This document shows, piece by piece, positions 18,612 through 60,632 of a DNA stretch of 64,000 nt; position 1 is the stretch's first letter; the number at the start of each line of letters is the position of its first letter. The stretch comes from Escherichia coli (GTDB lineage: Bacteria > Pseudomonadota > Gammaproteobacteria > Enterobacterales > Enterobacteriaceae): NCBI RefSeq assembly GCF_003334765.1, contig NZ_QOWT01000010.1, one strand, 5' to 3'. A program made the position numbers and the translations under genes. Under the pieces are notes generated by a model. It made no database searches. It was given only the letters and a program-made list of their open reading frames with translations, and was not told where the DNA came from.

Positions 18612-18704
18612 TAAAACAGTGAATGATAACCTCGTTGCTCTTAAGCTCTGGCACAGTTGTTGCTACCACTGAAGCGCCAGAAGATATCGATTGAGAGGAT
18701 TTGA

Positions 18705-35673: not shown

Positions 35674-36848
35674 TTTGTGTGGTCCATAATATTTTTCATG
35701 GGAGGATAAATTGAGCCAGATGGAATGGCCCAGGGAGTGATTTTGCTTTCACCTACTAATATTCCCTTAGCTATTCGTGATTGCATGTTAGTAAAAACTT
35801 TATGATATGGTTCGTTTTCGATTAATACTAAATTTTCGAAATCATTAGTACCACCATCATCTAGAGATAGTTTATGGTGAACATTATAATTTAGAGGAAC
35901 ATTGCCCTTTCTCATTCTTAAAAGGTCTTCGGCGTTGAATCTTCCAGATGCTTCGGAGGTTTTTGCAAGTTTGATAAGAAAATTTTTTCTTACAGTTTTA
36001 TTAAACTCCTTTCGTAAGTTAGCTAAGTCTTTTGAAGGTCTCTTAATGTATATTATTTCTATTATGTCTATACCATCAAGAAGTTTTTGTTGACCTCTAA
36101 GTTTGCCTAAGTAACTATTTATTTCTGTATATGTATCAACATTAGAACGCTTTGTTAAAAGAATAGATGCTGTTGCTATCGCTATGCCCGCTGTTTTTTC
36201 ATTTAGTATTTGATCATAGCCTTTTATTGCATCTCCACCCAGTTTTTCCGCAGTATCTCTGAATCCTTCAATGTTCCCATTGTATACGCCACCAGCAGCA
36301 AGTAGCCTGCCAATAGCTTTGCTGTTTAACGTTTTGAAACGATTATTTGTTTGGTTTTTTGAATTTGGTAAAAACAAACGGTTATAATTTTCAGGGAGTG
36401 CCAAATAGCTGAACTCGGTATTTGCGATAAGATGTTGACAGAGGATAAATTCATAACTAATAGTTATTGTTTCTGTATCCAGTTGGTTTTCAATGATCTG
36501 GTGATGAATAGCCGATAAAAAAGCGCCTCTTAGTTGTATATAATAATACTTTTCCAATCTACCAAATCTATTTATTCGATAGAAGTCAAATCCCATAAAT
36601 AATTGTTCATTATTGTTAATGGAATTAATAAATAATGGAGTGCTTTTATCAATTAATTTACAAAATGTTATACCATGGAACTGTGAACCAAGCCCCGTAT
36701 TATTAATATTATTTAAGAGTGAGAATGTAAATATTTCATCCTCATGCCCGCTCTGCCAACGATTACCTGTAGACTCAGAAGTCCCACAACCTGCGGAGAT
36801 GCTTCCTTGTTGTTCTCCCGTTACTGTCAGGTAAACAATATTACTCAT
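35670..36848 (-). CDS. yhhZ: Hcp-domain protein fused to a C-terminal HNH-type nuclease-like toxin domain
   Basis: 392 aa. N-terminal about 150 aa has Hcp (T6SS tube) family character (MSNIVYLTVTGEQQGSISAG...HEDEIFTFSL...FDFYRI...). C-terminus carries an HNH-like motif NYNVHHKLSLDDGGTNDFENLVLIENEPYH. AT-rich gene. Confidence 0.85.
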   Translation of the reverse strand: MSNIVYLTVTGEQQGSISAGCGTSESTGNRWQSGHEDEIFTFSLLNNINNTGLGSQFHGITFCKLIDKSTPLFINSINNNEQLFMGFDFYRINRFGRLEKYYYIQLRGAFLSAIHHQIIENQLDTETITISYEFILCQHLIANTEFSYLALPENYNRLFLPNSKNQTNNRFKTLNSKAIGRLLAAGGVYNGNIEGFRDTAEKLGGDAIKGYDQILNEKTAGIAIATASILLTKRSNVDTYTEINSYLGKLRGQQKLLDGIDIIEIIYIKRPSKDLANLRKEFNKTVRKNFLIKLAKTSEASGRFNAEDLLRMRKGNVPLNYNVHHKLSLDDGGTNDFENLVLIENEPYHKVFTNMQSRIAKGILVGESKITPWAIPSGSIYPPMKNIMDHTK

Positions 36849-37084
36849 CCCTGAAAAGTCCTTTTATGGCATGCTATTTTATCAATGGCAATATTATGCT
36901 TGTTAATTGTTATTTATTTACTCCAGGAAATTGTAGGCGTATATATTAAAAAATAAAATATTACACTTTAGGAAGTAATTATGAGTTAAATCTCAATATA
37001 TGTATTGGGCAAATAAATACCTTAAAGGAAGGTATGTCGATTTTGAATGACACCCTTTTTCCATCTCAGAAAAAGGGCACTATC

Positions 37085-37573
37085 TTACTTCACCCGCGCC
37101 ATATAATATGCATCGACATATTCACCATTACGCAATGCGTACTTCTTACCAGTCCCTTCAATTTCAAAGCCGTATTTTTTATAGACCTTAATTGCCGGGG
37201 CGTTATCGACAAACACGGTTAGTTCAATGCGATCTACCCGCAACCAGTTGTCGCACATTTCAATCATCTCTCGCATCAGGGCGCTGGCGACGCCGCGGTT
37301 CTTCCAACGAGAGTCGACACAGATACCAAAATCGGCAACATGACTGCGGCGTGGGCGCTGTTGCACGTCAATGGTGAGATGGCCCACGACGTCTCCATCA
37401 ATACAGGCGACGAGTTGCTTGATGCCGGGACGATCGGCGAGTCGCTCCTGCCACATATGATCGGAAGGATGAGGCACCTGTAGTGTGTTGCAATACACCT
37501 CCGGCTGGGCGTGAATCTGCCTGATGGCCTCGTAATCCCGTGTTTCTGCGTGGCGTATTACTATCTCACTCAT
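37085..37573 (-). CDS. yhhY: GNAT-family N-acetyltransferase
   Basis: Start placed at MSEIVIRHAETRDYEAIRQIHAQ (162 aa); acetyl-CoA-binding motif RWKNRGVASALM. Confidence 0.85.
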   Translation of the reverse strand: MSEIVIRHAETRDYEAIRQIHAQPEVYCNTLQVPHPSDHMWQERLADRPGIKQLVACIDGDVVGHLTIDVQQRPRRSHVADFGICVDSRWKNRGVASALMREMIEMCDNWLRVDRIELTVFVDNAPAIKVYKKYGFEIEGTGKKYALRNGEYVDAYYMARVK

Positions 37574-58105: not shown

Positions 58106-58864
58106 ATGAAACAAACACAACGTCACAACGGTATTATCGAACTGGTTAAACAGCAGGGTTATGTCAGTACCGAAGAGCTGGTAGAGCATTTCTCCGTCAG
58201 CCCGCAGACTATTCGCCGCGACCTCAATGAGCTGGCGGAGCAAAACCTGATCCTGCGCCATCATGGCGGTGCGGCGCTGCCTTCCAGTTCGGTTAACACG
58301 CCGTGGCACGATCGCAAGGCCACCCAGACCGAAGAAAAAGAGCGCATCGCCCGCAAAGTGGCGGAGCAAATCCCCAATGGCTCGACGCTGTTTATCGATA
58401 TCGGCACCACGCCGGAAGCGGTAGCGCACGCACTGCTCAATCACAGCAATTTGCGCATTGTCACCAACAATCTCAACGTTGCTAACACGTTGATGGTAAA
58501 AGAAGATTTTCGCATCATTCTCGCCGGTGGCGAATTACGCAGCCGCGATGGCGGGATCATTGGCGAAGCGACGCTCGATTTTATCTCCCAGTTCCGCCTT
58601 GATTTCGGCATTCTGGGGATAAGCGGCATCGATAGCGACGGCTCGCTGCTGGAGTTCGATTACCACGAAGTTCGCACCAAACGCGCCATTATTGAGAACT
58701 CGCGCCACGTTATGCTGGTTGTCGATCACTCGAAATTTGGCCGTAACGCGATGGTCAATATGGGCAGCATCAGCATGGTAGATGCCGTCTACACCGACGC
58801 CCCGCCGCCAGTAAGCGTGATGCAGGTGCTGACGGACCACCATATTCAACTGGAGCTGTGCTGA
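58106..58864 (+). CDS. glpR: DeoR-family glycerol-3-phosphate regulon repressor
   Basis: 252 aa; N-terminal DeoR HTH region. Confidence 0.93.
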   Translation: MKQTQRHNGIIELVKQQGYVSTEELVEHFSVSPQTIRRDLNELAEQNLILRHHGGAALPSSSVNTPWHDRKATQTEEKERIARKVAEQIPNGSTLFIDIGTTPEAVAHALLNHSNLRIVTNNLNVANTLMVKEDFRIILAGGELRSRDGGIIGEATLDFISQFRLDFGILGISGIDSDGSLLEFDYHEVRTKRAIIENSRHVMLVVDHSKFGRNAMVNMGSISMVDAVYTDAPPPVSVMQVLTDHHIQLELC

Positions 58865-60444
58865 TCCTGCACGGCTTCCCACGTCAGACCAAAACGCGCC
58901 AGGTATTTGCGTAGCCGATCCGCGTCATTGACGCTGGCTTTGCCCTGGCGCGAAACGTCAAAAAGCTGGCGTCCGGCTGCGGAAAGCGACTTTGCCTGGC
59001 GGCAGATAGCGATAACGTGTTCCAGTTGCATACGGTCGAAGAGATCGATGTTTTCTGCCTCTGCGCCCAGCAACGCCGTAAGCGCGGAGGGGCGGCTCTC
59101 CTGCCAGTTATAGCGCAGACGGTTTATCTCATCTTCAACCACGTCCAGAGTGATGCGTCCGCTAGTGGCAAAGGTGGCCATCCGCGTGACGCTGGCAGAA
59201 AGTTCGCGAAAGTTACCGCGCCATGTTGCCTGGGGAGAGGTCGCAAAAGCCAACCAGGCGCGCCGCGCTTCGGTGTTAAAACGCACGCTGTCGCCAGTGA
59301 GTGAGGCGTGGCGCTCCACTTCATAATCCAGGTTCGGTTCAATATCTTCCTGGCGCTGGCGTAGACCCGGCAGGGTGAAGGTCCAGAGATTGATCCGCGC
59401 GTACAGATCTTCGCGAAATTTGCCTTCGGCAACCAGCTGGCGCAAATCGCGCACCGTTCCGGCGATAAGCTGAAAATCACTGCTCACCTGGCGATCGCTG
59501 CCAAACGGGTAAAAGGTTTTCTCTTCAATGGCTTTCAGCAGCATTGCCTGTTCGTCTGCGCCCAGTTCGCCAATCTCATCAAGAAACAACATTCCGCCGT
59601 TGGCGCTGCGTAATAAACCTTCACGAGATTCCCGCGCCCCGGTAAACGCGCCTTTTACATGACCAAACAGCGTCGACATGGCGGTATCGCCGCGCAGGGT
59701 GGCGCAGTTCACTTCCACAAACGCGCCGCTAAACTGATGCCGCGCCTGTTTTAACTCGAAGATGCGTCGCGCCAGAAATGACTTGCCCGCGCCGGTTGGA
59801 CCGTTAAGCAGAATCGGCGCGCGGGATTTGATCGCCACTTTTTCGATCTGCTCAATCATGCGGTTGAAGTGGGGGTTACGCGTGGCAATGCCGGACTTAA
59901 GAAAATCAAGCGTTTGCTGGCGTTCCTCGGCAAAGCGGCTGGCGATGGCGTTATAACGGCTTAAATCGAGATCGATAATCGTTACTTCACCTGGGCCGCG
60001 CGGCTGTTCTTTTTTGCGCGGAGGTGAAGATTGTATCAGCCGGGCGGGCAGGTAACGCGCTTCTGCCAGCAGAAACCAGCAAATCTGCGCGACGTGGGTA
60101 CCGGTGGTGATGTGAATTAAATAGTCTTCTTTTTCTGGCTGAAACTCGTAACCACGGGCGAAATCATGCAGGCAGGCGTAGACCTCTTCGAAATCCCACG
60201 GGTTATGCAGTTCAATCTCAACGCTCACCACTTCTGTTTCTGGCGAAACGCTGGCGATATCGCGTTTAAGCGTTTCAAATAGCGAGCGCGAGCGGGCGTC
60301 GTGCAACAATTCCAGTCGATCGATGACCAACGATTCTTGCTGGCATAAACAGAGTGTCGGACGCCATTTTGACCAGCGCTGACTGCCGCGCCCGGCATAA
60401 TCCAGTACGGTACCGACAAAGCCAAAAGCCACTGTTTTACGCAT
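58846..60444 (-). CDS. rtcR: Sigma-54-dependent activator of the rtcBA operon
   Basis: 532 aa; AAA+ sigma-54 activator motifs ([14 protein letters not shown]) and C-terminal HTH; 3' end overlaps glpR by 19 bp. Confidence 0.93.
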
Positions 60445-60578
60445 CTTAGATATCCTTATAAAAGACGATATTTCATTATCGGTAAATTGGCTTTGCGGGA
60501 AATCTCCGGTTACGGACGTAAAGATATAATCTTTTTTAAAACAATGAATTAAAAAATTAAGCTGCTTATTTAATTTTC

Positions 60579-60594
60579 TGGCACGACGGTTGCA
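60579..60594 (+). promoter_or_regulatory. Sigma-54 (-24/-12) promoter of rtcBA
   Basis: TGGCAC-GACGG-TTGCA matches the sigma-54 consensus exactly, about 40 bp upstream of the rtcB start. Confidence 0.85.
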
Positions 60595-60632
60595 ATTATC
60601 AGGACAGCAAACAACGAAAAGAGAAAAACAAA

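Follow-up and report, generated by a model that had tools for sequence, protein, structure and literature searches.

Sigma-54 promoters such as glnAp2 and nifH, with the activators NtrC and NifA, respectively, have a GG-N10-GC core and an activator bound ~100-150 bp upstream, with DNA looping between them that is IHF-assisted at nifH. At pspF-pspA, the enhancer lies next to or overlaps the promoter of the activator gene, an IHF site is located between the enhancer and the -24/-12 box, and PspF represses its own gene. The rtcR-rtcBA locus of Escherichia coli has the enhancer-dependent plan in common with glnAp2 and nifH, though the family branch of the activator and the signal differ, and its sigma-54 activator gene is divergent, as in pspF/pspABCDE. 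On the other hand, PspF has no regulatory domain and is held off by PspA, while RtcR has a CARF domain that senses RNA-derived signals. The psp and rtc systems have been likened to each other by previous authors, in that effector proteins feed back on the activator (PMC9650030).

Two closer systems have been described. The Salmonella-type operon, rsr-yrlBA-rtcBA with a divergent rtcR (Chen et al. 2013; Hughes et al. 2020, PMC7790460), is under the same activator, and the sigma-54 box, TGGCACGCTGGTTGCAAT in Salmonella LT2, is the same as well. Whereas rtcB directly follows the promoter in E. coli, these relatives have the Ro60 homologue rsr and, according to the literature, Y RNAs too, between the promoter and rtcB. 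The other is rtcR/rtcBA of E. coli K-12 (Genschik et al. 1998; Engl et al. 2016; Kotta-Loizou et al. 2022), which is the very same locus as the one analysed here. The Rtc system is reported to aid recovery from ribosome-targeting antibiotics (PMC12606134).

The rtcR-rtcBA locus and its genes

The window in this work is a 64-kb stretch of the E. coli chromosome. Within it, positions 60445-60632 form a 188-bp spacer that lies exactly between the starts of rtcR (minus strand) and rtcB-rtcA (plus strand). The spacer is base-for-base the same as in K-12 MG1655, in which the genes of the locus are annotated as rtcR, rtcB and rtcA. Bases 58800-62900 show 100% identity to E. coli strain H3, from which the whole window differs at 6 bases, and they are matched, at least partly, in 5,425 of 5,426 complete E. 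coli genomes. A first-pass annotation of this DNA had described an RNA-repair operon of known biology with rtcR divergent from rtcB-rtcA. The identity to K-12, the RefSeq annotation and the literature agree with the former statement, and the open reading frame coordinates, the strands and the profile searches with the latter. It is thus with high confidence that we regard the spacer as the divergent control region of the E. coli RNA-repair operon rtcBA. The promoter, the activator RtcR and the Rtc enzymes are established E. coli biology, already in the literature; our own inferences concern where exactly the enhancer, the IHF sites and the transcription start lie, and what the base composition does.

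The gene rtcR (58846-60444, minus strand, start codon read as CAT at 60442-60444) encodes the sigma-54 enhancer-binding activator. Its product scores 852 bits against the NCBIfam equivalog NF038308 (cut-off 650), and contains an N-terminal CARF-type domain (Pfam PF06956, residues 2-185, 1.4e-85) and an AAA+ sigma-54 interaction domain (Pfam PF00158 Sigma54_activat, residues 187-354, 9e-51), together with a match to AAA_lid_14 and a C-terminal DNA-binding part. The translation also shows the Walker A motif GPTGAGKS and the GAFTGA loop. AAGGA at 60453-60457 (minus strand), 8 nt before the rtcR ATG, is the probable rtcR Shine-Dalgarno element as read from the sequence, and 8 of the 12 alignment columns of 60445-60456 are kept in at least 11 of 13 enterobacterial loci.

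The gene rtcB (60633-61859, plus strand, ATG at 60633) encodes the RNA 3'-phosphate/2',3'-cyclic phosphate to 5'-OH ligase. Its product matches Pfam PF01139 (1.1e-133, residues 29-408) and PDB relatives named RtcB (1e-35 to 1e-29). The NCBIfam RtcB-type models match it as well, yet under their cut-offs, and because of this we have taken the name from the Pfam match, the PDB relatives and the identity to the K-12 gene; RefSeq annotates 60633-61859 as rtcB, too. For rtcA (61863-62879, plus strand), the RNA 3'-terminal phosphate cyclase gene, we have used the K-12 start, and an alternative in-frame ATG at 61860 abuts the rtcB stop (61859). The RtcA product scores 780 bits against NCBIfam NF003247 (cut-off 333) and matches Pfam RTC and RTC_insert. 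With a simple scan, no terminator was found 3' of rtcA.

Compared with the K-12 locus, nothing of substance is different: RtcB and RtcR carry one substitution each (P21L and L229F, respectively), RtcA is identical at the protein level, and glpR is intact. This last gene (58106-58864, plus strand, 252 aa), for which K-12 MG1655 has an annotated pseudogene, converges with rtcR (58846-60444, minus strand), and the two 3' ends overlap by 19 nt.

The sigma-54 promoter and the predicted start of rtcBA transcription

The first-pass annotation had also noted a perfect TGGCAC-N5-TTGCA element upstream of rtcBA and had called the promoter textbook. We have located the element, TGGCACGACGGTTGCA, at 60579-60594 on the plus strand, with the -24 GG at 60580-60581 and the -12 GC at 60592-60593, these two dinucleotides being exactly 10 bp apart. 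Its end is 38 nt from the rtcB ATG (60633), and it adjoins the divergently encoded gene of its cognate AAA+ activator, RtcR. The extended sigma-54 consensus of Barrios et al. 1999 reportedly reads mrNrYTGGCACGrNNNTTGCWNNw; the E. coli sequence fits it throughout the 17-nt core, but the 5' flank, TTTT, departs from it. A standard sigma-70 promoter scan of 60100-60900 gave no match.

This is the sole exact TGGCAC-N5-TTGCA match on either strand of the 64 kb. In shuffled versions of the window, 0.09 matches are expected, and 9 of 100 shuffles contain at least one. That is, the motif count alone is only mildly unlikely, so the case for sigma-54 is carried by the position and the conservation of the box. 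To assess the latter, rtcR loci were gathered by a genome scan, with homologues located on contigs; 13 enterobacterial spacers were aligned (mean pairwise identity 63%), and about 9 distant rtcR loci were also compared. The sigma-54 box is present in all 13 enterobacterial spacers, where 11 of the 19 columns of 60578-60596 are invariant. In a survey of beta-, gamma- and delta-proteobacterial and Calditrichia rtcR loci, 16 of 17 related loci had a TGGCA[CT]-N5-..G[CA] box, at a distance of 128-198 nt from the rtcR start, and in most lineages this distance is ~130-160 nt.

The literature adds evidence for this element. Bonocora et al. 2015 (PMC4591121) list the 17-mer CTGGCACGACGGTTGCA, upstream of rtcB, as OS35, a sigma-54 site from in vivo ChIP-seq, and mark it as confirmed before. 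PMC9650030 and PMC5175333, both citing Genschik et al. 1998, state that the rtcBA promoter needs RtcR and sigma-54. Tests of the dependence on rpoN and rtcR, as suggested in the first-pass annotation, are reported to exist already (Genschik et al. 1998; Engl et al. 2016; for Salmonella, PMC3844500). The Salmonella orthologue is rpoN-dependent (PMC3844500), and a 175-nt fragment, 60458-60632, is enough for RtcR-dependent reporter activity (PMC5175333). It could still be argued that the TGGCAC-N5-TTGCA match arose by chance and has no promoter function, considering that nearly one in ten shuffles contains such a match. However, the published in vivo occupancy falls at exactly CTGGCACGACGGTTGCA, the box is kept at a similar distance from rtcR in the enterobacterial and most of the distant loci, and the gene of a sigma-54 activator adjoins it, so that a chance origin has a practically negligible probability. 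The rtcBA promoter is sigma-54-dependent, the occupancy and the dependence on RtcR and sigma-54 being known from the literature.

As to the description as textbook, it does not imply strength. The motif score of OS35 is mid-range, 11.2 (PMC4591121), and the native promoter has been called 'very weak in vitro'; because of this weakness a hybrid with the nifH core was used in place of the native rtcBA core (PMC9650030).

We predict the transcription start at C60605, counting 12 nt on from the -12 C. This gives a 28-nt leader (60605-60632, plus strand) with a weak purine-rich ribosome site, in agreement with the entry '28' for rtcB in the ChIP-seq table of PMC4591121. In addition, the native promoter has been assayed with the primer ApC plus ATP (PMC9650030), and this fits A60604-C60605-A60606. 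These observations suggest that rtcBA transcription probably begins near C60605. The leader aligns with the rsr leader of the relatives, and its purine-rich stretch is moderately conserved.

Two RNA elements were considered at this locus and rejected. A structured or small RNA in the spacer was dropped, as an Rfam search of 60200-60900 returned no match at E <= 1 and the rtcBA leader is unstructured (folding z = +0.77). The second candidate is a long-range hairpin in the rtcR leader. A 9-nt perfect inverted repeat, CAAAGCCAA / TTGGCTTTG, is found at 60417-60425 (rtcR codons 7-9) and 60487-60495 (in the spacer); in the transcript, its pairing would close a loop containing the rtcR ribosome site and AUG (z = -2.2). 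A double compensatory change in this hairpin occurs in one Escherichia lineage. Nevertheless, ten Escherichia sequences together show all four haplotypes at positions 60421/60491, and two of these strains have an A-C mismatch there, so covariation is unsupported and there is no clear selection for pairing. The left arm of the hairpin is also outside the RtcR-responsive reporter fragment.

Several observations on sigma-54 boxes are worth recording. In strain SJC33 (locus L027), the -24 element at the position of 60582 reads TGGTAC instead of TGGCAC, which is a natural promoter variant, and strain MY732 carries G60585A, still within the sigma-54 consensus. A second sigma-54-type box in the window, TGGCACAGTTGTTGCT at 18649-18664 (plus strand), is 41 nt upstream of the rpoH start (18705), and it corresponds to the known rpoH sigma-54 site OS36 (PMC4591121).

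The palindrome and the AT-rich core as candidate control elements

In the alignment of the 13 enterobacterial spacers, two conserved islands can be observed, i.e., the sigma-54 box and a palindrome on the rtcR side. The latter is contained in a conserved block, TATAAAAGA-CGATATTTCATTATCG at 60457-60481, in which 16 of 25 columns are invariant; in the adjacent segment, 60482-60519, only 2 of 38 are. The palindrome itself, CGATA-N6-TATCG, occupies 60466-60481, its centre being about 131 bp upstream of the predicted start. None of the 13 loci departs from the sequence of either arm, while the 6-nt middle varies. It is the sole exact match of this pattern in the window, where 0.08 are expected, and it is within the RtcR-responsive fragment 60458-60632 of PMC5175333. 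The existence of a UAS for RtcR is stated in the literature (PMC9650030, PMC5175333). A 2016 review gives the RtcR enhancer consensus as 'NK', that is, not known (PMC4987338), and we have found no published sequence or coordinates of the RtcR enhancer in the literature. Judged by its position and conservation, CGATA-N6-TATCG is a candidate for the RtcR enhancer (UAS).

The scope of this proposal is the Enterobacteriaceae, because the distant loci are without the palindrome, except for one from Pseudomonas. In the distant loci, including the delta-proteobacterial ones, GATA/TATC-rich DNA is found near rtcR with a different spacing and without the E. coli palindrome, and a near copy of it is seen only in Pseudomonas sp. 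GD03944 (CGATATAACAGTATCA).

A different explanation of the block 60457-60481 is that it belongs to the sigma-70 promoter and leader of rtcR, or is the operator of another regulator, and that the true RtcR sites lie in 60482-60578. The right arm of the palindrome, read on the minus strand, is GATAAT (60480-60475), the best -10-like hexamer for rtcR. Besides, a distance of only 13-37 nt to the rtcR start codon puts the block in or beside the rtcR leader. On the other hand, the invariance of the two arms is symmetric, which fits a dimeric site better than a lone -10 element. No conserved -35 accompanies the hexamer; a looser sigma-70 scan gave weak candidates only, the best of which for rtcR is TTTCCC-16-GATAAT. 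Elsewhere in the 175-nt fragment, only the sigma-54 box and the IHF zone described below are conserved. A position of about -131 is also typical of the enhancers of sigma-54 promoters, which are expected about 80-150 bp from the start. Taken together, that the block is the rtcR promoter and leader or the operator of another regulator, and not the RtcR enhancer, seems rather unlikely, though it deserves to be kept in mind.

The two roles of the palindrome, enhancer and rtcR promoter, may actually coexist, by analogy with pspF-pspA. RtcR bound at the palindrome would also repress rtcR, because the site is 22-37 nt from the rtcR start and overlaps the -10-like box. If both roles are true, RtcR would repress its own gene like PspF, and rtcR would be autoregulated at the enhancer.

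Between the candidate enhancer and the -24 element, the spacer has an AT-rich core of 15% GC (60520-60578). The GC content is 31.9% for the whole spacer and 48-60% for its 150-bp flanks, which agrees with the earlier remark that the control region is AT-rich compared with its flanks. It is 52.7% for the window and 53.8% for the annotated coding DNA, and the spacer falls in the lowest 2.2% of all 188-bp windows. We have further ranked the window's intergenic spacers by GC, taking those of 40 bp or more (n=34, mean 43% GC). The rtcR-rtcB spacer is the third lowest of the 34, and both spacers with lower GC sit inside the low-GC yhhZ-yrhB island. That is, it is somewhat extreme even among E. coli promoter DNA.

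The AT-richness might have no specific role, being simply the ordinary low GC of intergenic DNA that results from mutational bias and generic promoter needs. Consistent with this explanation, the intergenic average in the window is below the coding value, other spacers are as low or nearly so (panM-livK, 33%; rhsB-nikR, 35%), and only 3 of the 59 core columns are invariant across the enterobacterial loci. However, the core keeps 12-23% GC in all 13 of these loci despite the sequence turnover. In Pseudomonas loci of 64-65% GC, the equivalent segment from rtcR to the box still has 30-34% GC, and overall this segment has 21-34% GC in 15 of 16 loci, Accumulibacter (45%) being the exception. The IHF consensus sites recur at fixed offsets, and the spacer has the lowest GC of the 11 divergent spacers in the window. 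With these observations, a purely generic origin appears improbable to us. Within Escherichia, the polymorphism is mostly at about 60518-60545. Since the composition is kept while the sequence is not, a physical role of the AT-rich core is indicated, and the AT-richness would be best explained by a role in bending or looping, to which the overlapping rtcR promoter and leader probably also contribute.

H-NS usually targets AT-rich DNA, and the spacer might accordingly be horizontally acquired DNA under H-NS silencing; the absence of the region from ~10% of complete E. coli genomes would suit such an origin. Against it, the low GC is limited to the spacer, with the flanking rtc genes at 48-68% GC (150-bp windows). 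The same glpG-glpR context is found in the six enterobacterial loci with neighbours listed, and the one absent allele that was examined is an internal deletion with rtcR and rtcA remnants, not an empty site. We see no indication of foreign DNA in the AT-richness, and consider this explanation very improbable. The AT-richness seems instead to be a conserved compositional feature, as far as can be judged from the aligned loci, and a modest addition to the known biology.

Sigma-54 promoters often, though not always, have an IHF site or an intrinsic bend that separates the enhancer from the core element. The AT-rich core contains two overlapping IHF-consensus-like sites on the plus strand (60539-60559), centred roughly at -52 to -60. 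These are AAACAATGAATTA (60539-60551) and AATTAAAAAATTA (60547-60559), each with 1 mismatch to WATCAANNNNTTR. In E. coli alone they are not distinctive, as the window has 62 WATCAANNNNTTR-like matches versus 49 expected. Other taxa have a perfect IHF consensus: in Iodobacter, Accumulibacter and three Pseudomonas loci it precedes the TGG by 41-42 nt, and in Superficieibacter by 30 nt. The Salmonella-type locus L032 and the locus L036 also have perfect IHF sites, which align with the second of the two E. coli sites. The distant taxa and the enterics indicate different E. coli sites (-40 versus -32). PMC9650030 mentions 'the rtc IHF binding site', placed between the enhancer and the core, without coordinates, and we have found no published coordinates for it in the literature. 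We propose 60539-60559 as the candidate IHF zone, in which either of the two sites may be used.

A 14-nt direct repeat with 12/14 identity, AAAACAATGAATTA / AACAAAATGAATTA, at 60538-60551 and 60627-60640, ties the IHF-like zone to the rtcB start region, and it is probably a chance match in AT-rich DNA.

The mechanism that we propose for this control region is as follows. The sigma-54 RNA polymerase would sit as a closed complex on TGGCACGACGGTTGCA (60579-60594). RtcR, encoded divergently, would be kept inactive by its N-terminal CARF domain until RNA-damage signals appear, as the CARF domain is described to hold RtcR off pending such signals (PMC9650030). It would then bind an enhancer ~130 bp upstream of the start, for which CGATA-N6-TATCG (60466-60481) is the candidate. 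The AT-rich DNA at 60520-60578, with the IHF-type sites at 60539-60559, would bend, so that the AAA+ ring of RtcR could contact sigma-54 and open the promoter with ATP, and the rtcB-rtcA mRNA would start near C60605 with its 28-nt leader. The combined proposal, i.e., that the palindrome is the RtcR enhancer, that bound RtcR activates rtcBA and represses rtcR, and that the AT-richness of the 59 bp has been selected for bendability rather than for a particular site, is put forward tentatively, as we hold it at slightly under an even chance. The coordinates of the candidate enhancer and the IHF zone may be of use for designing reporters and for dissecting the promoter that is weak in vitro.

Layouts in relatives, the yhhZ island and a deletion allele

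The relatives that carry rsr share the palindrome, the AT-rich core and the leader with E. coli. We have compared the layouts in L005, L006, L018 and L031-L036 with the window at 60595-60640. Behind the common promoter and leader, two layouts are observed, with either rtcB first (Escherichia, the Salmonella-type locus L032, and also L036) or rsr first. As the leaders align up to the start codon, the difference in rsr appears to come from an insertion or deletion that starts at the ATG. In K. oxytoca, apparently only the first rsr codons are left (ATGGCTAATCTACTT...), and rtcB follows ~130 nt later.

In the non-Escherichia enterobacterial spacers L005, L006 and L031-L035, at the position of about 60495-60515, a short GC-rich hairpin (often ...GCAGCG...) is followed by 5-7 T on the rtcB-sense strand. 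It is placed between the palindrome and the IHF zone, and E. coli is without the T run. This element resembles a small intrinsic terminator, or it may be a mere T-tract.

The lowest-GC stretch of the window is at 34637-37149 (minimum 24.5%), with yhhZ, yrhA, yrhD and yrhB. Of these, yhhZ (35670-36848, minus strand) is annotated as a tssD/Hcp1-family effector; an Hcp domain forms the N-terminal part of its product, whose C-terminal part gives weak matches of HNH or colicin-DNase type (E = 0.013 and 1.9). The first-pass annotation had suggested that the yhhZ nuclease might be linked to rtcBA induction. We find this link unsupported, as the weak matches hint at a DNase, not an RNase.

Among the 5,426 complete E. 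coli genomes, the rtcR-rtcB spacer is unmatched in about 570. The one example that we examined, strain S4, has a ~3.2-kb deletion corresponding to about 59230-62462 of the window, with ~14 nt of overlap at the junction. Most of rtcR and rtcA is lost together with the promoter and rtcB, and the 3' remnants of rtcR and rtcA are joined to each other.
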